Shown in pieces: positions 18,857 through 62,486 of a DNA stretch of 64,000 nucleotides. The first letter of the stretch is position 1; each line of letters starts with the position of its first letter. Below the pieces are notes generated by a model. It had not been told where the DNA came from and did no database searches. It worked only from the letters and a program-made list of their open reading frames with translations. The position numbers and the translations under genes were made by a program. Source of the stretch: Octopus vulgaris (Eukaryota); contig OX597837.1 of the NCBI GenBank assembly GCA_951406725.2, forward strand, positions 24,118,001-24,182,000, in the 5' to 3' direction.

Positions 18857-20024
18857 CAACACTGGGTCTCTTATCCGGCTTCCAGAAATCCGGAATTTTC
18901 AGAAGTTCAGGAATACTGTTCAATGTCGTACAATATACACTACTTTGTACCGAGTAAAGAGACTCTGTTTTTGATGTTGGTTAATTTGTATACGGTATGT
19001 TGTGGAGGCGCAATGGCCCAGTGGTTAGGGCAGCGGACTCGCGGTCATAGGATCGCGGTTTCGATTCTCAGACCGGGCGTTGTGAGTGTTTATTGAGCGA
19101 AAACACCTAAAAGCTCCACGAGGCTCCGGCAGGGAATGGTGGTGATCCCTGCTGTACTCTTTCACCACAACTTTCTCTCACTCTTACTTCCTGTTTCTGT
19201 TGTACCTGTACTTCAAAGGGCCGGCCTTGTCACTCTCTGTGTCACGCTGAATATCCCCGAGAACTACGTTAAGGGTACACGTGTCTGTGGAGTGTTCAGC
19301 CACTTACACGTTAATTTCACGAGCAGGCTGTTCCGTTGATTCGGATCAACCGGAACCCTCTTCGTCGTAACCGACGGAGTGCTTATGTTAAAAATAGTTT
19401 TAATCATCCTGAAACACGTGTCCCTAGATGCAGCCCGGGCGGCCGGGGGTGTTTGTCTCCCCTTCGTAAATGTATATAAGGACACAGGAAAAATGCGTCA
19501 AAGCCATCAGGAGGCGTCGATGCTTCCTAGGGCTAAACAGCGGTGGTGTACCCCCCTACTGTCACGTTCGTGTTAGATTGACAGTATACAACCATTCTAT
19601 CGCCCCACCACCGTACATGTCTCTATGAGAGATTTAGAAATTTAGTATTTCTAGTTTTAATGTACCTTCTATTAAGTTGATTGATAAATATTTACTTTAG
19701 GATTGTATTAGTTTGTACCGGTATCTGTTAAATAAAATAATGTTATTTTTCTTCATTTTGGTTTCGTGTTATAAACATTATACTGTTTGCGTGGTACATT
19801 ATGATATATTTTAAGAATTATAAAAGGATTAATGAATATCAAACAGATCCTGCTTTAGAAGTGTATTCATTTGAATCTGATTGATACAATTTTGTTCTTT
19901 ACTTTTCATAGTTTCTTTTGTATTTAAGTATATATTTCGGCTGTCTCCAGAAAATCGGAAAGTCCAGAAATCCGGGCCATTTCCGGCCCTAAGGTTACCG
20001 GATGGATAGCTGGTCCGGTACTGT
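18857..20024. mobile_element. pogo/Tigger-like non-autonomous DNA transposon containing a SINE
   Basis: Imperfect inverted ends (TACAACACTGGGTCTCTTATCCGG / ...GGTCCGGTACTGTA) with repeated TCCAGAAATCCGG. A related end occurs at 62130-62190. Confidence 0.55.
19002..19383 (+). mobile_element. SINE family A, full length
   Basis: A and B boxes present. Short TSD tatgtt. Confidence 0.9.
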
Positions 20025-20725
20025 ACTATATTTTTAAAATATGCTATAGGGTTTCACGAAATAAACCTCGATGAAAAGAGATTTCTATTGGCTTTATTTA
20101 TTTATTTATTTTTGTCAGAACTAAATCTGTAAGTGATGGTTGAGAGAGCGTAACGAATTTAGAACACCTTCTGCGCCAGCTACGTGAGACAAGTACAAAT
20201 CTTCAGTTTTTCTAAGCTACGGTCAGAAGTGACGGTGAGTGATGTGTGAGAAACAACAGCAACAACAAAATAAAAATGATAATAGAAAGGGGACCCTTTG
20301 GTACATCCAAATAATTCCGGATGAATGGGTGGTTTAAAAGTACAAGAGACAGAACGATTTAAAAGTAAGAGAGATAGAGATGGAGAGGGAGAGGAAAAGA
20401 GAGGGAGGTTTTAAAAGGGGTTCTTTGTTGAGGTTTAAGTGATCCTAATGTTGAATGAGTGACGAAGATAAACGAGGTGATTGGGTGAAAAACCAAGCAA
20501 GAGGAATGCAGGTGATGCTGAATATTAATAAATATGTGGAACAAAAATGTGTTGATAGTTGTGTAGTGATAGTTGTGGTGATAGTTGTGTAGTGGTGATA
20601 ACAGCAGTTGTTGTAGAAGTGACGGTTGTGATGGTGGGTGGTGGGTGGTAGTGAATGAACAAAGAGGATTACGGTAATTAATAGTTATGATAGTAATTAT
20701 TGCTGATAACAAATTTTTTTCTTAC

Positions 20726-20838
20726 CAAAACGCAAACCATGAAGATTATGAAAAACAAAACTACGCATCCACATACGATGATGGCGATACCCCAGTTTGG
20801 AAGAGGTTCAGTGGTTTGTGCAAGAGTAGCCACGGGAA
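20726..20838 (-). CDS. Mucin transmembrane exon (IPVATLAQTTEPLPNWGIAIIVCGCVVLFFIIFMVCVL)
   Basis: Reads ttttgtatttcag|TT CCC...GTT TTG|gtaaga. 113 nt, phase 1 to phase 0. Encodes a ~23-residue hydrophobic helix. Confidence 0.9.
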
Positions 20839-20852
20839 CTGAAATACAAAAC

Positions 20853-22876: not shown

Positions 22877-22954
22877 GTTACTTATCCAAACAAACAGTAG
22901 TACAGGAGAAATAAATGAAGTAGAAAATACACAGAGAATATATGCTTCACTTAC

Positions 22955-23112
22955 TTGAATGATAGATGGAAGTTTTATTTAATTCAAAAGGACCCAAGTA
23001 ATAGGTCGGCTCCAACTGACTGTCAAAGAACTGGTTGACCATCGTGGAATTGATCTCGGTTCCCTTTGTAAGCACGAAAGAAGCTTCGTAGTAGACCACC
23101 ACGCTTCCTTGC
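22955..23112 (-). CDS. Mucin exon, SEA C-terminal part with (R)QG/SVVV cleavage motif
   Basis: Reads tctattccag|G CAA GGA AGC GTG GTG GTC...CAT TCA A|gtaagt. 158 nt, phase 2 to phase 1. Confidence 0.9.
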
Positions 23113-23210
23113 CTGGAATAGACAATGGAAAAAAACTGTAATGTCTTGCGATTGGAAGGATTAGGTGTATATATATACATAGACGCGAACACATGCATAC
23201 ACGCGCGTGT

Positions 23211-24496: not shown

Positions 24497-24659
24497 TTAT
24501 TTACATTATTTACATTACTTACATTTGATGGATATTTGTCCTCGACTAGTTTGTTGTTAACACAACGTTTCGGCTGATATACCCTCCAGCCCTCTTCAGG
24601 TGTCTTGGGGAAATTTCGAACCTGGGTTCTCATTCCTAATGTATTCTTCGATGTTGTTG

Positions 24660-28300: not shown

Positions 28301-28632
28301 GAGGGACATGATATTAATGAGACAAACAAGCAATATGACAAACATGGAGGCAGATAGATAAATAGAGAGAGAGAGAAATAGACTGAATGGCAGGCAGAAA
28401 ATTGGAAAAGAAATGGAAAAAAAAATAAAATAAGAGACTGGTAGACAGAAACTGATAGAGACGAAATTGATGGCAAGAGAAATTTATCTGTTATCTGGTA
28501 GGCGGACAGAGACAAGACAGACAAACAAAGAGACAGTTAGGCTGATGGAGAGACAGACCAAGAGAAAGAAACAGCAATGGCAGACTGGTAGGGAGACAGA
28601 GAAAGCTAGGCGGATAAATAAAGATTACCAAC

Positions 28633-31600
28633 CAATGTATTTAGTTGTTTCTGCAACTCGAAATATTCTGTAGAATTCGTGTCTGCAAGTTCTTTCGACC
28701 AAACGGCACCTTTTATTATAGTAAATCTTCCATTAATCGTCAGTGGTCCTCCTTGTATTTCTGCTTCAGGAGTGCTTTTCCATGGAATTTCTGTAGAGAA
28801 ACTACTACTTGTAGTAGCATCATTATTTGTAGTAGTAGGAGTAGTAGTAGAAGTAGTAGCAGTAGCAACCTTTTCAGTAGTAGTGGCTGTTGTAGTTGCT
28901 ACTGTTGTTGTTGTAGTTGCTGTTGTTGTTGTTGTTGTCGCTGCAGAAGTGCTTGCTTCACTAGTGTCTATTGTACTACGTTCAGTGGAACCCAGTGTGG
29001 ATGAGGGAGTAATCGGTGTGCTTCCTGTTTCTGTATCATTTATGTTGTGGGGCTTTGACTTGGTTGACAAAATGTGCGTAGTGCTGCTTGTGGCCGTTGT
29101 CAAACCTTCAGAACTTGTCTCGGTCACCGTTTCATTATCTGTCGTAGATGATGTAGGAAGCTGGGACCGCGATGTTGTAGGTTCGGTTGTAGAGGGAGTG
29201 TTTGTAGATTCAACCGTAGGCGAGGTTGTTGGAGATTCGGTTGTGGGTGGGGTTGTTGGAAGTTCGGTTGCAGGAAAGGTTATCGGCGGTTCGGTTGTGG
29301 GCGAGGTGGTCGACGGTTCGGTTGCAGGGAGAGTTGTTGAATGTTCGGTTGTTAGCGGAGTTGTTGGAGGTTCGGTTGTGGGCGGGGTCGTCTGAGGTTC
29401 GGTTGCAGGAAAGGTTGTTGGAGGTTCGGTTGTGGGCGGGGTCGTCGGAGGTTCGGTTGTGGGCAGGGTCGTTAGAGGTTCGGTTGCAGGAAGGGTTGTT
29501 GGAGATTCAGTTGTGGGCGGAGTTGTTGGAGGTTCGGTTGTGGGAGGGGTCGTTGGAGGTTGGGTTGCAGGAAAGGTTGTTAGAGGTTCGGTTGTGGGCG
29601 GAGTTGAGGGTTCGGTTGTAGATGGGGTTGGTGGAGGTTCGGTTGTGGGAAGAGTTGTTGGAGGCTCAGTTGTGGACGGGGTTGCTGAAGGTTCGGTTGT
29701 GGACGGGATTGCTGGGGGTTCGGTTATGAGTGAGGTTGTTGGGAGTTCGGTTGTGGGCGGAGTTGTAGGTTCGGTTGTGGGAAGGATTGTTGTAGCTTCG
29801 GACATGAGCGGGGTTATTGAAGGCTCAGTTGTGGCTGGGGTTGTAGATTCGGTTGTGGATGGGATTGTTGGAAGTTCGATTATGGGCGAGGTTGCTGGAG
29901 GTTCGGTTGTGGGCGAGGTTGTTGGAGGTTCGGTTGTGGGTGGGGTTGTTGGAGGTTCATTTGTGAGCAGAGTGGTTGCGGTCTGAGTTATTACTGAATC
30001 TGTTGAAGGTACGGTTGTGTTCGAAGTCGCTGAAGATTCACTTGTACCCGGGGTGGTTGAAGACTCAAATATTACAGGGAAGACTGAAGTTTCTGTTGTT
30101 GCTTCGTTTGTGGACGATGACCTGGATGTAATTGTAACGGGTGGAGATTGGTGGCTGATCGGGGTGATTGTAGATGGCTCAGATGTGGTTGAAATGTATG
30201 AAGGCTCGTATGTGGTTGAGTTAGTAGGAAATTCCGGTGTGATCGAGGCGGATGCAGACTCGGATGTAGCTGAGCTGGCTACAGCAGTTTGTGAGCTCAA
30301 AGGTACCTGAACAGTTGAAGAAAAACTTGAAAGTAATGTGTCCGATGTAGCTTGAGATAACGTTGATGATTCATTTACCGTTAGACCGACTGATTCGCCT
30401 GTTGATGCTACAGTGGCACTCTGAGTTGTTATAAATGACTCACCAGTGTCCCGAGTGGCTGTTGAAAAATTTGTTATGTCTAGGTTGAGTGTTGAGGTTT
30501 CAGTAATGCTCTGTGTAGCTGCTGAGGCATCAACGGTGCTCTGGTTGACTGTCGAGAAATCAAATGTGTTTTGGGGGAGAGTTGAGGATTCTGGTGAGCC
30601 TTCGGTTACTTTCGAGAACTCAGTTGTACCTTTTGTTTCTGTTGCAGTCTCAGTTGTATCTTGAAATGTTTTTGAAGACTCAAATGTGAAGTCAGTTGCT
30701 TGTGTAATAGGCGTTTCCTCTAAGAACTGAGTCGTTGTAGCCTGGGAAGTTGAAAAGGATGTAGTTTCTAAGTCGGTTGAAAATAACCCGAATGTGTGTG
30801 CTGCGGGAGTAGAGGGTTCATCTGTACTAGGAATGACTGTGGACGACTCAGACGTAGCCTGTACTGGTGTAGTAATTTCATTTGTGAATGATTCAGTTAT
30901 ATACTGAGACGACGATGATGATGAAGATGTTGATGATGGTGTTGATGATGACGACAACGATGACAATTCCCCATTGAAAAGAGTGGACTCAGGTGCTCTT
31001 GAAGTAGATGTAGGTTCTTCACTTGTAGACTGTGTATTTGTAAACTGCTCGACTGTTGACTGGATGGAGTGAACTGGTAATGTAACATTATGTGATTCAG
31101 TAGTTGACTGAAGGTCACTAGTTGGCCCCACTGACGGAACGTCTGTAGGCTGCTCAGTGCTAGACTGAGCAGCTGTAGTTTCCCCAACCGTAGTCAGCTC
31201 AACAGTAGCTGTTCCAGCTGCAGTCAAGTCAACTGTAGTTGGTTCAATTGTAGTCGGCTCATGTGTTGACTCAACTGTAGTCAGCTCAACTGTAGTCGGT
31301 TCAACTGTAGTCGGCTCAACTGTAGTCGGCTCAACTGTAGTCGGCTCAACTGTAGTCAGCTCAACTGTAGTCAGATCAACTGTAGTCGGCTCATTTGTTG
31401 TTGTCTCAACTGTAGTCAGCTCAACTGTTGTCCCAGTTATAGTTGCCTCAACTGTGCCTATTCGAGCAGTAGTCGGCTCAACTGTAGTTTTCTCCACTGT
31501 AGATGTCGGAGTTGTAGTTGCTTCAGCTGTGATTCTCCGAGCTGTAGTCGGCTCAACGGTAGCCGGTTCGACTGTGGTCGGCTCAACTGTAGTTTGCTCA

Positions 31601-34028
31601 ACTGTAGTCGGTTGAACTGTAGTTAGGTCAACTGTAGTCTGTTCAAGTGAAGTCGGCTCAACTGTAGTTGATTCAACTTTTATCAGGTCAATTGTTGTTG
31701 TCTCAGGTGTAGTCGTCTCAACTGTACGCGGTTCAGTTGTCTCAGTTGTAGTTTTTTCGACTGTGTCTATCCGAGATGTAGTCGGTTTAACTCTAGTTGA
31801 CTGAACTGTAGTCGACTCAACTGTAGTTAGCTCAACTGTAGTCGGCTCAACTGTAGTCAGCTCAACCGTAGTTGTCCTAGCTGTAGTCGGCTCACCTGTA
31901 GTTAGCTCAATTATAGTCGGCTCAACTGTAGTTAGCTCAACTGTAGTCGGCTCAACTGTAGTTGTCCTAGATGTAGTCGGCTCAACTGTAGTTATCCTAG
32001 CTGTAGTCGGCTTACCTGTAGTTAGCTCAACTGTAGTCGGCTCAACTGTAGTTGTCCTAGCTGTAGTCGGCTCAACTGTAGTTAGCTCATTTATAGTCGG
32101 CTCAACTGTAGTCAGCTCAGCTGTAGTCGACTCAACTGTAGTCGGCTTATTTGTTGTTATCCTAGTTGTTGTGGGCTCAACTGTTGTTCCAGCAGTGGTT
32201 GCCTCAACTGTGCTTGTTTGAGCTGTAGTTGGCACATCCGTTGTCGACTCAACTGTAGTTGTCCCAGTTGTAGTTGACTGAACTGTAGTCGGCTCAGTTG
32301 TTGTGGCCTCAAGTGTAGACGTCTCAACTGGAGTTGTTCTCGCCGTAGTTGCTTCGGTAGTACTTCTCTGAGTCATAGCCGGCTCAACTGTTGTGGTCTC
32401 CGCTGTAGTCAGCCTGGCTGTAGTTGTCGCCGATGTAGTCGGCTCAAGTGTAGTCGCTTCAGTTGTGGTTGTGTCAGCTATAACTGTTTCAGCTCCAGGC
32501 AGTTTGTTTGTGGTCAACGTAGCTGTAGTTGAGCTAGCTGTAGGTAGTTCAAACGTGTCCGTCCGTGTTGTTGTCGGTTTAACTGTAGTTGTCTCAGTTG
32601 TAAACTGAGAAGGGGTTGTCAGTTCAGTTGGTGACTGGGAAGCTGTATGCTGATTAGTTGTAACTGGAATGACAGAAGCCGCTTTGCTCTCAGAGTGAGG
32701 GACTATAATATCAGATGTTATATGCTGATTGGTTGTGTATTGCTTATCTGCAGACGAAATAGTTGTAAATGATTCGGAGACTGACTGAGTGGCTGTAGAC
32801 TGAGTGTGTGTAGATTGAGTAGTTACAGATGAACTCATTGTAGACTGAGTCTCTGTAGAAGGCTCAGCAGAAGAACGAGTGACTGTTGACTTAGAGTCAG
32901 TACTCTGAGTAATCGTAGATTGTGTAGTTGTAGACTTTGGCACTAGAGTTTGAGAGTCTGTGGATTTGGTGGTCACGGACTGGGCAGCCGAAAATTGCGT
33001 GGTCGTTGACTGAGTTGTCGCAGCCTGGGTAGCTGCAGCGGCATTAGCTGTGGCCTGAGCAACTGTCGACTGAACTACCGTAGTCGTAGGAACTATAGAT
33101 GAATTAGGTTTAGTGCTAAAATCTAAGGAAACATCATTTGGTTTATTCGTTGGCAATTTTGTATTTGTTGTTGGATGAGTCCCTGAGAAAGTTGTTGATA
33201 ATGATGGTGGTATGGCTGATGTTTCCGTTTCAGCGACAAGATTTGCGTTATTGAGAATGGCTGCCTCTTTTGTTGGAACCCTTTTGGAAGTTGTCGGAAT
33301 CACCCGTGAAATCATTGTTGTTTTTGATGCTATCGTCTGCGGCACTGAAGTTATCTGCGGGTTGATCGCTGTCGTCTGGTATTCAGCATAGCCCACTAAC
33401 GAATCACTCTCTTTTAGATTCAATTTCACTGTTTCTGGAGAGACACCAAACGAATTATCATTGTCTTCTAAATAAGTTTTCAATGAAAATTCTTGCTGTG
33501 AATCATCATTCGTTTGGTTATTTTGCTTCTTTTCTTCATGCAACGATTCACTGCGAACTGTGGGGTTCATTGTAGCTACAAAATGTTCTGCTCCCTGCAT
33601 AATAACTGGAGTATTTACTTCCAAATGTGATTTGTCTGAAGTAACATTTTTCACAATTGTCGCTTCGTGATCAGTGGATGTAAAGATTCTCGAATCGTTC
33701 TTAACTGGAGCCGCTATTTTCAATGCTTGCCGTGCTTCGTCTACAACATTTGCCGAAGTAATTTCCAGCAGAGGATGTGCAATAGTTGCAAGCGACAACG
33801 AACTTGGCGTCGTTACAAACCGATGTACATCGTTAGGTTTAACAGTCGTTTGACTAAGAGAAGTAGCTGTATGAAAGATATTCGAGACGAAACTTAAATG
33901 CTTCTTTTCATCTAAACCTGGTTCAGTCGAACTAAAAGAATCCGGAAATTTTGAAAATGGCAACTCTTCGCCTTGATAAAACTGATTGGTTGGTGAAGTA
34001 TAGTTTCCAGTAAAATCTGCTCGGGACT
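28633..34028 (-). CDS. Large mucin (PTS) exon of a transmembrane SEA-domain mucin, ending in the first part of the SEA domain
   Basis: Lies within the 1825-aa ORF 28606-34083. Thr/Ser/Pro/Glu-rich with TTVEP and PTTEPPTT repeats. Acceptor ttttttccttgtcttacag|AG (phase 1) at 34028. Ends ...RFTIIKGAVWSKELADTNSTEYFELQKQLNTL|gttggt (phase 0), which resembles a SEA N-terminus. Confidence 0.9.
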
Positions 34029-49449: not shown

Positions 49450-50905
49450 GGGACCTGAAGAACGCAGCTGGCTATATGATAGCTGACACCCAAGGAATTC
49501 TCGATCGCTAGAAGTCCCATTTCGACCACTCACACACTCCAGACGATCTCCTCCAAAACACCACACAGCTCCCCATCCGCCATTGGATTCCCTGCCGCCC
49601 TTGTCTTATGAGTTCAACAAGGCATTCGAGCGTATGAAGCCGGGTAAAGCTTCGGGACCAGACAACATCCCGTTTGAGTTTTTCCCGCACGGAGGTCCTA
49701 AGCTGAGAAATCATCTGACGCTCCTTATCCTCAAGACCTGAGAAAGCAAGACCCTCCCGAACGACTTCCTCGATGCAACTATCATCACCATCTACAAGAA
49801 GGGAGACCGTGAGGATTGCAACAACTATCGGGGCATCTCACTCCTGAGTATTGCAAGCAAGAACTTCGCCCGTATCCTACTCAATTACCTCCTCATCCTT
49901 GCAGAAGACGTCCTCCCTGAGTCCCAGGCACAATCGACATGATTTTTTATGCCCGCCAACTTCAGAAGTGTCAAGAACACCAACAGCCTACAATGTTCAT
50001 CTTCTGGGATCTAAAGAAAGCTTTTAACAAGGTCACCCGTCCTGCAATGTGGGCATCCTTGCTCGGTTTGGATATACGGAGGATTTCACTACCCTGGTCC
50101 ACTCCTTTCACGACGGCATAGTGGGTAGGGTATGCCATCAAAATGCTCTCACATACCCGTTTCTCATTACGGAGGGTCTTAAGCAAGGATGCGTCCTAGC
50201 ATCAACCTGTTTCTCTTTGTACAGAGCCGCCATATTCAACGAAATCCCACTAGACTCGCCTTCCATCAACATGCGCTACCGCTTGGATGGCGGACTCGCA
50301 CATCTCGGCGCAAAGACGAGGACCTCAGCCATCTCAGTCCGTGAGATGCAGTATGCCGACGACAATGCCACCCCGAGCCGAACCGTAGATGACCTACAAA
50401 GGACGGCTGATCTTTATAATGCGGCTTGTGAACGCTTCGGAATACAGGCAAACATATTAAAGGCCAAGACCCTGATCCAACCTGCACCAGGCCAGAACAA
50501 TCCACGAACATTAGCATCGATGGCAAATCCCCAGAAGTTGAACACTTCTCATACATTGAGAGTATTCTTTCGAAGACCCCCCACATGTGAAAAGGACTTA
50601 GAGAACCGGATCAGGGCGGCCCACTCCGCCTTCGATAGACTGAGCCAATGTGTATTCTTCAATCACGCGCTGACCATCCAGACAAAGATCATCGTCTTCG
50701 TGCTATTGTCCTGTAAACTCTTCTTTACGCTTGTGAGAATTGGACGCTGTACCGTCGTGACTTCACGCGCTTTGAATGCTTCCAGCAATCCAAGCTACGA
50801 CAGATCCTCAATATTCGATGAGAAGATTATATTACCAATAATGAAGTTCTTTGCCGCGCCTCACTACCAATCGTCAAAGCCACCATTCTTCGCCATCGTC
50901 TGTAC
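49450..50905 (+). mobile_element. Decayed RTE-clade LINE (reverse transcriptase)
   Basis: GKASGPDNIP, YKKGDREDCNNYRGISLLS, FWDLKKAF, GLKQGCVLA, QYADD. Frameshifts and stops. Confidence 0.9.
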
Positions 50906-51063
50906 GAATTCTGCCCACGACTCTTTCACTACAGCCTTGAACTTCAAAGTCACATTCGGCTCTAACATCTGCCGAGGAGACTTGATAGAAACTGACAAAC
51001 CCAACGCTCGGATACGAGTTGGAGCCGAGAACGACATGTATGTGTGTGTATATATATATGATT

Positions 51064-51423
51064 GCACTCCGTCGCTTATAACGACGAGGGTTCCGATCAA
51101 CGGAACAGCCTGCTCGTGAAATTAACGTGCAAGAGGCTGAGGACTCCACAGACACGTGTACCCTTAACGTAGTTCTCGGGGATATTCAGCGTGACACAGA
51201 ATGTGACAAGGCTGTACCTTTGAATTACAGGCCCAACAGAAACAGGAAGTAAAAGTGAGAGAAAGTTGTGGTGAAAGAGTACAACAGGGTTCGCCACCAT
51301 CCCCTGCCGGAGCCTCGTGGGGATTTAGGCGTTTTCGCTCAATAAACATTCACAAACGCCCAGTCTGGGAATCGAAACTGCGATCCTATAACCGCGAGTC
51401 CGCTGCCCTAACCACTGGGCCAT
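51064..51423 (-). mobile_element. SINE family A
   Basis: Reverse copy of 19002-19383. Confidence 0.85.
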
Positions 51424-60735: not shown

Positions 60736-60770
60736 ATTTAACGTTTCGAGCGGAGTTCTTCGTCAGAAAC
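60736..60770 (-). ncRNA. Minimal type I hammerhead ribozyme (Penelope type)
   Basis: gttt-CTGACGA-a-gaac/gctc-GAAA-cg-TT-aaat. One mismatch in stem II. Confidence 0.6.
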
Positions 60771-61814
60771 ATGGAAATAGGAAAGATCCAAGGAAGGGAA
60801 GACAGAGGGAAAAAAATCGCCAACGATACACACGCGAGTAGATAACAGCTAACCTTTGGCCTCTGTTTTGACCCCGTTGTGTCCAGTACTCTGATTGGTT
60901 GGTATTGGCGCAATTAGTCTCTTACTCCATCGTGCGTTAATATGCAACCTAACCAATCGCAACCACCAAATAAATCACGTGAGACAATCTGTTCTAAACT
61001 CCAATTTTGAACCTACCATTAGCTATAAAATCTCACCTCCTCCTAGTCTCGAGGTCTGTTGGTTCCATACCTTCTAAGGTTTAACCACTGACCACACGAC
61101 AGCCAGTTCCAGCGACGACGCCAGACAACAGCATTACAGCGACCTCCATCTTTGTCGCCACCATCATGTCTCTCACTGACGTCGTCAGCAACATCTCTAC
61201 ACAGCACCAACAACACTGCACAGGTTCTAACATATCGCTGTTCGTGAACAACATCACCATGGTTAACGGCAAACATACAACTCACGCAGATGCATGTAGA
61301 TATATGAATAAGTGTTCATCAACCATTTCTATTTATCATTCAGCTTGTATATATGTGTGGCCGGCATTAAAGACATTTAAAGTTACCACCTTGTACTATG
61401 TATTTCTTTATACCGTGTTCCTGTCAAATGATATTACAGCCTTCTGAGTAGAGTCACATTAGGTGGCTCCACAACCTATCTATAGAGTAATTCCTTCCCC
61501 CGAATTTACTGGCCTTGTACCAAAATTTGAAACTAAAGTAATATACTTATAGAGTAGAGTCTGATGTTTATAAATCAACTTAAAATTCTTAAAATATATC
61601 ATAACGTACCATGCATGCAGTATGAGGCATTATGAAAATTAAACAAAAAAAAATTTTAAGAACATGAAAAGTAATGTTTGTTGCCACTTCAACATGGCTT
61701 TTCCTTATGGATTTAGCAACTACCATTTTCTTTAACCCCGGGAGGACATCTTCGCCAGCTGATTAACGACATAATCCGTGTCCAATATACTGCGAGCAGG
61801 GAAGCGAACCCCTA

Positions 61815-61900
61815 CCATCTAGCAGTGACAAAACCAGTAGACCAGTCTGGTTTCAGGATATTTCCCTTCGTCAGTACTGGATACCTATCTGCTAGACATG
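61815..61900 (-). ncRNA. Type I hammerhead ribozyme with GUC site and extended stem I
   Basis: ccagta-CTGACGA-a-ggga/tcct-GAAA-ccag/ctgg-TC-tactgg (61880-61834), plus a distal ctagcag/ctgctag helix. Confidence 0.8.
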
Positions 61901-62486
61901 GCAGTATATAGAAAAATAAGCGACATTCAGCGTAAAGAACACGATTATATTTAAAAGATACGGCTGCAAATTAGTACGCTAATAAAGCAGAGTATTTTAA
62001 TGTTTATCAATGCATTTGAAAATAATTAAGAACAAAACAGCTTTTAACACACCGTATGCAAATTAGCTTCGAAAACCGGGTCTGTTTACTCAATGCAGAG
62101 TGCTGTATATTGCACGGAATTGCAGTGTTCTCCAGATTTCTTGAAATTCCGGATTTCTGGAAGAGCCGGATAAGAGGTCCGGTACTGTGCCACCTCCAGC
62201 CCTACTGACTTAAGAACGAATATACCGGTTATTGCGTTGTTGTTAAAGTTGAAAGTCGTGCAGAGTTGTGGTGGTGGTGGAGGCAGCGGTGGCATTGATG
62301 GTGGTAATAGTGGTACAGAAAGGTACTGATAAATAGTGGTGGTGTGAGCGAGGGTGGGTGGTAGTTGAGGTGGTGGTGGTTGCGGTGGGTGGTGTGACGC
62401 AGCATATTTGTTGCAATGGCATTAGGGAATAATGGTGGTGGTGATAGTAGTAGTAGTAGTAGTAGTAGTAATAGTAGTAGTAGTAG

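Follow-up and report, generated by a model that had tools for sequence, protein, structure and literature searches.

Short repeats that carry hammerhead ribozymes are known from many animal phyla, so that one more such locus is unsurprising in itself. Among the closest described systems are the non-LTR retrozymes that Cervera and de la Pena (2020, PMC7229834) report from coral, mussel and axolotl. Metazoan retrozymes are there described as non-coding repeats of 150–450 bp with type I hammerheads, low GC content and long duplications. Their multimeric transcripts are reported to be cut and ligated into circles, and reinsertion is thought to occur via LINE or Penelope-like enzymes (PMC7229834, PMC7761336, PMC4918200). 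For Nematostella, duplications of 15 bp are given, and retrozyme RNAs are quoted as more than 70% self-paired (PMC4918200). Two features of the ribozyme itself bear on what follows: in fast hammerheads the U at the seventh base past the cut is described as pairing with a loop II A, a rule given for a tetraloop (PMC9217987), and a reverse Hoogsteen pair is reported as conserved in hammerhead types I and III (PMC6155905).

A literature search, with most subscription papers outside its scope, found no description of such a family in cephalopods, although the supplements of PMC7229834 and PMC13282606 may bear on the point. The words ribozyme, hammerhead and retrozyme are absent from the main text of the 2026 Octopus vulgaris repeat annotation; the giant squid genome paper counts 235 hammerhead-1 matches, with no further analysis. 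Octopus is apparently an unreported host group for hammerhead-bearing retroposons, which are of a kind already known. What the present locus adds is a hammerhead family in octopus that is invisible to Rfam.

A type I hammerhead on the minus strand

The 64-kb stretch of octopus DNA analyzed here (the window) carries on its minus strand an intact type I hammerhead, identified both by reading the sequence and by a descriptor scan (Table 1). The CUGANGA, GAAA and UH elements of the core lie between three helices, of which helix I is open-ended, and the full-hammerhead descriptor has a single match in the window, namely this site. Cleavage is predicted 3′ of C61840, the C17 of the GUC triplet. An earlier note, made from the sequence alone, had proposed a full-length GUC hammerhead at this position, and its outline holds: core, GAAA and GUC are all present, as are the 6-bp proximal stem I, the distal ctagcag/ctgctag helix (7 bp, 61895–61889 with 61819–61825, pair probabilities 0.69–1.0 on folding) and a stem III, given as 3–4 bp, that comes to 4 bp when A15.1-U16.1 is counted and has a 3-nt loop.

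Two details required revision. Stem II does have four pairs (A-U, G-C, G-C, G-U), but the AATA loop ascribed to it is a 5-nt loop, AAAUA (61863–61859), whose last base is A61859. Pair 10.1-11.1 is A61867-U61855, with no spare base between A9 and stem II; the G-U that had been assigned to this pair instead closes loop II. The register previously proposed was rejected because it needs an additional A in the core and because the majority G-C at the fourth pair in other copies fits only the A61867-U61855 register. Among hammerheads, G-C is commoner than A-U at 10.1-11.1. The second detail concerns stem I, where the supposed 8×8 internal loop is better drawn as a wobble-rich helix preceded by a 3-nt bulge that faces U1.7: six additional pairs are possible within the loop, three of them G-U in the copy at 61819–61895. 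U61833 is the seventh base past the cut and A61859 ends loop II, so that the sequence basis of a contact between helix I and loop II is present; the sequence requirements are satisfied, and the contact itself is predicted.

To assess chance, the descriptors were run over both strands of 3,402 versions of the whole window made by block-wise dinucleotide shuffling. The loosest descriptor gave 140 matches (0.04 per window), the middle one 27, and the tightest, fixed post hoc to the stem lengths observed, a single match. The chance expectation is thus 0.0003–0.04 per window, and the motif at 61840–61874 is real and far above chance. Neither at gathering score nor with the threshold relaxed to E≤10 did Rfam 15 match a hammerhead family in the whole window or in segments of 6 kb, 211 bases and 86 bases. 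Matches in a bacterial promoter scan were at chance level only.

Two minimal, Penelope-type hammerheads were also seen on the minus strand. The one at 60736–60770 (core from 60766) has four stem I pairs and a broken first stem II pair; it lies in what we take to be a Penelope-like terminal repeat, with CCAAT-like boxes at ∼60890–60960. The other, at 24558–24604 (core from 24599), has a 5-bp stem I, a palindromic stem III and a U at the cut position, and adjoins a long ATT/AAT microsatellite.

Table 1. Positions of the hammerhead, of the insertion that contains it and of the surrounding repeat.
Feature	Positions	Strand	Description	Basis
Hammerhead core	61840–61874	−	C3-A9 61874–61868; stem II and 5-nt loop 61867–61855; GAAA 61854–61851; stem III; GUC	sequence, descriptor scan, shuffles
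Proximal stem I, 6 bp	61834–61880	−	61880–61875 paired with 61834–61839	descriptor scan
Stem I extension	61819–61895	−	3-nt bulge 61883–61881 opposite U61833 (1.7), wobble-rich middle helix, 7-bp distal helix	folding; majority letters at 61887, 61882, 61832
Folded module	61780–61912	−	basal helix 61912–61899 with 61781–61793, hammerhead arm, hairpin 61817–61795	fold z −3.8
Most widely shared family block	61668–61704	−	3′ end of hammerhead-strand RNA	summed depth 10,800–34,200 (X1, X14) versus 1,600–2,600 over core
Whole insertion, 265 bp	61668–61932	−	GC about 0.43, non-coding, single in window	empty form in X1 joins 61624 to 61932
Left target-site duplication	61656–61667	+	12 nt (2 mismatches) or, counted from 61658, 10 nt (1 mismatch)	
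Right target-site duplication	61933–61944	+		repeat search and alignment to paralogue
Older host repeat, MITE-like, inverted terminal motif	61535–62187	+	71–74% alike to ∼18860–20023 copy	interrupted by insertion

The insertion and its relatives in other contigs

The hammerhead is not a lone ribozyme: it is part of an inserted, multi-copy repeat. The parts of the host repeat on either side (61535–61665 and 61934–62187) match a second copy, at ∼18860–20023, on the other strand. The segment 61668–61932 is thus an insertion with target-site duplication: the middle is absent from this paralogue, both flanks align to the identical nine bases of it (19748–19740), a 10–12-nt repeat borders the middle, and a contig of run X1 has an empty joint, with 28 host-repeat letters in between. 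The terminal 12-mer of the host repeat (62176–62187) is the inverse of the other end of the second copy, and its left end is lost beside a SINE tail at ∼61495–61533, with loose contig ends at 61493–61536. The second copy lies on the minus strand and is interrupted by other repeats at ∼19010–19600; owing to such nested insertions the two copies were compared by local alignments.

The insertion contains no open reading frame of 90 codons and has no second copy within the window. Neither a long direct repeat nor LTRs were found, and no terminal inverted repeats of the insert occur among the 25 longest of the 33 pairs listed. There is no tandem unit at the locus, which consists of one unit only. 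That the unit is dispersed and single, with a clean target-site duplication and empty paralogues, is good evidence that it moved by target-primed insertion; the 10–12-nt duplication points to a LINE or Penelope-like enzyme.

Sequence from 61400–62250 is in part present in 20 of the 24 runs listed (13 studies), and contigs from four of them (X1, X11, X12 and X14) were compared, the comparison covering 40 of 123 differences, 15 of 73 joints and 32 of 8,726 pieces. X1, X12 and X14 are DNA or unlabelled runs, from organisms A, E and F, in which depth does not equal copy number. Dozens of related contigs, mostly 80–95% alike, are found in these three organisms, with tens of distinct contigs per run. 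Homologues, whose lack the earlier note had named as counting against a ribozyme, therefore exist. Of the retrozyme-like setting that it had suggested looking for, high copy number is borne out at the level of the family; the tandem context is not, the locus being one copy flanked by a target-site duplication. Run X11, RNA by guess, has one listed 43-base piece in the insert, at a low depth similar to that of the host repeat.

Sharing is uneven along the insert. Two blocks, 61668–61704 and 61788–61813, are the most shared, the common letter occurring in 42–80 contigs (67–80 at 61700); the hammerhead is less shared, with common letters in 9–39 contigs per DNA run. The first of these blocks is a candidate signal for a borrowed reverse transcriptase, and may offer a handle on which enzyme moves animal retrozymes. 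The joints 61824→61901 of X1 and X14 show that part of the family resembles the locus on either side of the hammerhead arm and not in its core; the arm is therefore lost or strongly diverged in those copies. No joint of the kind that goes back, as in a tandem array, lies within the insertion among the 15 of 73 joints listed.

Sixteen listed pieces reach 61886. Half of these end at 61904–61905 and run on into unlike letters, none of the eight stopping at a contig end (in one contig 515 unlike letters stand directly behind the 61905 limit); six end at 61886–61900, and two continue over the right junction to 62198. The latter (X12 record 24 and X14 record 32) are apparent orthologues: over about 375–395 bases each differs by 23 letters, with 9 and 4 gaps respectively (∼94% alike), and a further piece, X14 record 25, spans the left junction. 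The insertion appears to predate the split from organisms E and F, having diverged by ∼6% there; alternatively, the composite of insertion and host repeat may have been copied as one.

Outside these runs, a 22-mer had 0 matches in metagenomes and there were 0 matches in prokaryote genomes and none in phage records. One metagenome match to a 19-mer was set aside as chance, being in coding-looking DNA; two matches to viral contigs had no further likeness to the locus.

Fold and condition of the copy

The best predicted fold of the locus copy is inactive: the 5′ strand of stem I, together with three core bases, pairs with the stem III strands, and within the predicted ensemble the proximal stem I has a probability of only 0.04. 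In each of seven contexts the active fold is less stable than the ensemble by 5.1 kcal/mol (4.4 with looser constraints), a gap that falls to 1.8 kcal/mol when four majority letters of other copies are placed in the hammerhead. Since the folding model has no tertiary or Mg2+ terms, cleavage is still possible despite the inactive best fold.

The majority letter at 61858, carried by 14, 13 and 22 contigs in X1, X12 and X14, makes the fourth pair of stem II a G-C and raises the stem II pair probability in the A61867-U61855 register from 0.06 to 0.96. Two G-U pairs of the middle helix become G-C with the letters that prevail at 61887 and 61832, and the middle base of the bulge, 61882, likewise departs from the majority. 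Overall, a Watson-Crick pair replaces a wobble or mismatch wherever the common letter is put in at 61858, 61887, 61832, 61802 or 61772. Twelve letters account for half or more of the depth in every one of the three DNA runs, and with them the ensemble energy of 61668–61905 falls by 8.1 kcal/mol. Among 400 random sets of similar changes, 19 equal this stabilization, and the plus strand gains as much. One of the twelve, at 61790, weakens a pair (+1.1 kcal/mol), and a frequent letter at 61823 would break a distal pair unless a partner outside the listed differences also changes. These data lend modest support to a family source that was better folded and from which the locus copy has drifted. The locus copy looks decayed, given that common letters turn wobbles into Watson-Crick pairs and that its best predicted fold is inactive.

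Across the whole insert 61–62% of bases are paired and the fold is modest, with a z of −2.0. Side hairpins at 61768–61782 and 61700–61713 are imperfect at the locus and perfect with letters common elsewhere, the repair of the latter resting partly on 2 contigs per run.

This qualifies the earlier description of the motif as the window's best candidate for an active monomeric ribozyme that cleaves fast at low Mg2+. It is the only non-minimal hammerhead that the scans found in the window, its 4-bp stem III suits a monomer, and the sequence requirements of the stem I/loop II contact are in place; its best predicted fold, however, is inactive, and the gap of 4.4–5.1 kcal/mol makes fast activity questionable. 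We would expect the locus copy, on balance, to cleave measurably in vitro, and consider fast cleavage at low Mg2+ doubtful.

Origin of the repeat and comparison with known systems

The locus is probably a lone, aged copy of a retrozyme-like family carrying a type I hammerhead. The basis for this is observed: the motif, the insertion, the target-site duplication, the empty paralogues, the multi-copy family and the sharing with organisms E and F. In such a family, transcripts of source copies would cut themselves into unit-length pieces; after ligation into circles, these would serve a borrowed enzyme as templates for reverse transcription back into the genome. As the cleavage site of a type I hammerhead is close to the 3′ end of the motif, a linear RNA, once cut, would lose the 65 bases upstream of the site (61905–61841), and whole hammerheads would then persist only via a circular, tandem or uncut template; a single turn of reverse transcription round a circle would yield a 265-base unit with the ribozyme inside. 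The copy at the locus could at most cut a passing transcript once, without release of unit-length RNA, because there is no second hammerhead. Candidate helpers within the window are the minimal Penelope-type hammerheads and a reverse-transcriptase relic. The relic, at 50028–51116 on the plus strand, is a decayed LINE fragment (RVT_1 E 0.00011, below cut-off).

Several findings do not sit easily with this reading. The 61–62% pairing is below the figure quoted for retrozyme RNAs, there is no tandem copy at the locus and no Rfam match. We file the element as retrozyme-like, and not as a member, because the tandem arrangement fails at the locus. The sharp limit at 61905 could be a fixed 5′ end, which a promoter-defined SINE would explain better than a circle.

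A SINE-like retroposon with an internal RNA polymerase III promoter, the hammerhead lying between its boxes, is the likeliest alternative, though we think it rather unlikely. It would account for the abrupt end of similarity at 61904–61905. With the A-box and B-box consensus, the scan of the insert found an A-box-like 11-mer from 61894, 11 bases inside that limit, and a B-box-like 9-mer at 61809–61801; yet the insert holds three matches to the loose A-box pattern, A-plus-B combinations occur in 26 of 2,986 background segments of the window, and the B-box-like motif has a mismatch at the conserved A, with no common letter listed there, and sits in a hairpin with a 6-nt loop, unlike a tRNA T arm. 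ARAGORN detects no tRNA. Depth drops from the hairpin block toward the 5′ side over the cut site in all three DNA runs (12,675, 5,918 and 2,642 in X14), as a SINE might show if it inserted from uncut or multimer-derived RNA while cut products gave rise to many shorter copies. Precedent exists in the SINE-like elements Sm-alpha and Sj-alpha of schistosomes, as described in PMC6765202 and PMC2770079. Reviews, on the other hand, present retrozymes as seemingly promoterless and Sm-alpha as mostly tandem (PMC7761336, PMC6765202), and for this reason the SINE and retrozyme readings overlap. We would give still less credence to the specific proposal that octopus holds a family of Rfam-invisible ‘ribozyme SINEs’: scattered, solitary units, each with an invariant 5′ end and with Pol III boxes of its own around a full-length hammerhead. 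If it were true, self-cleavage would yield two kinds of RNA, one whole and mobile and the other decapitated and without promoter, and the element would be self-limiting and free of tandem arrays.

It is improbable that the hammerhead is a passenger, either in a segment captured by a non-autonomous DNA transposon and moved as DNA or in a fragment of a Penelope-like element. The location of the segment inside an inverted-repeat element invites such a reading, as do the Penelope-type hammerheads 1 kb away (60766) and at 24599. Against it are host-element copies that lack the insertion, family pieces that end close to the insert limits, a hammerhead whose complete stem III sets it apart from the minimal Penelope type, and an insert with neither an ORF nor, among the 25 longest of 33 pairs listed, terminal inverted repeats.

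Domestication at the locus, the copy cutting a host transcript as amniote intronic hammerheads do, is more improbable again. The core is intact, the insertion is common to organisms E and F (X12 record 24; X14 records 25 and 32), and a mucin-like SEA-domain gene lies on the same strand 28 kb downstream. The orthologous contigs are nevertheless far from ultraconserved, with their 23 letters and 4–9 gaps of difference; the locus copy carries pair-weakening changes and a predicted misfold; and a search for 5′ exons of the gene found none that would make the location intronic. On the hammerhead strand, the large exon of this gene begins near 34020: a Thr/Pro-rich exon of ∼1,800 codons (28606–34020) that closes with the first part of a SEA domain (below the Pfam cut-off, E 0.00015), with a probable second SEA exon at 22950–23115 and a probable transmembrane exon at ∼20700–20850. 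No signal-peptide exon was found between 34100 and 64000, and no orthologue of the protein was found (seven weak matches; Atlas score 0.76).

The idea of a chance match, to which the missing Rfam match and the non-hammerhead best fold might be thought to lend weight, is effectively refuted by the expectation of 0.0003–0.04 per window and by the distal helix, U1.7, the loop II A and the pair-restoring letters in other copies.

With the metazoan retrozymes the locus shares a canonical type I hammerhead with a stable stem III, a non-coding unit of 265 bp, GC of 0.43 (<50%), a duplication of 10–12 nt (>4 bp being the criterion), many copies and no LTRs. It differs in being a single unit where they form tandem arrays, in being less self-paired and in having A-U at 10.1-11.1. 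Circular RNA and cleavage, which belong to the retrozymes, are putative for the octopus family. In the main text of PMC7229834, mussel is the sole mollusc named; its supplement possibly has more.

To Sm-alpha and Sj-alpha, compared here by description (PMC6765202, PMC2770079), the octopus insert is likened by a type I hammerhead whose stem I extension is bulged, by being a short, multi-copy retroposon and by possible internal Pol III boxes; unlike them it has no detected tRNA-derived segment and its B-box-like motif is imperfect. With the minimal hammerheads of Penelope-like elements it shares type I topology, and both kinds occur in the window. The minimal ones are described as lacking stem III and the loop contact and as cleaving as dimers (PMC6155905, PMC6765202), whereas the octopus hammerhead has a 4-bp stem III and a stem I extension. 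Finally, like the amniote intronic type I hammerheads, it is a single full-length motif at a locus shared between species; the amniote motifs are reported to be highly conserved (PMC6155905), while that of octopus is a member of a repeat family, with ∼6% change and signs of decay.
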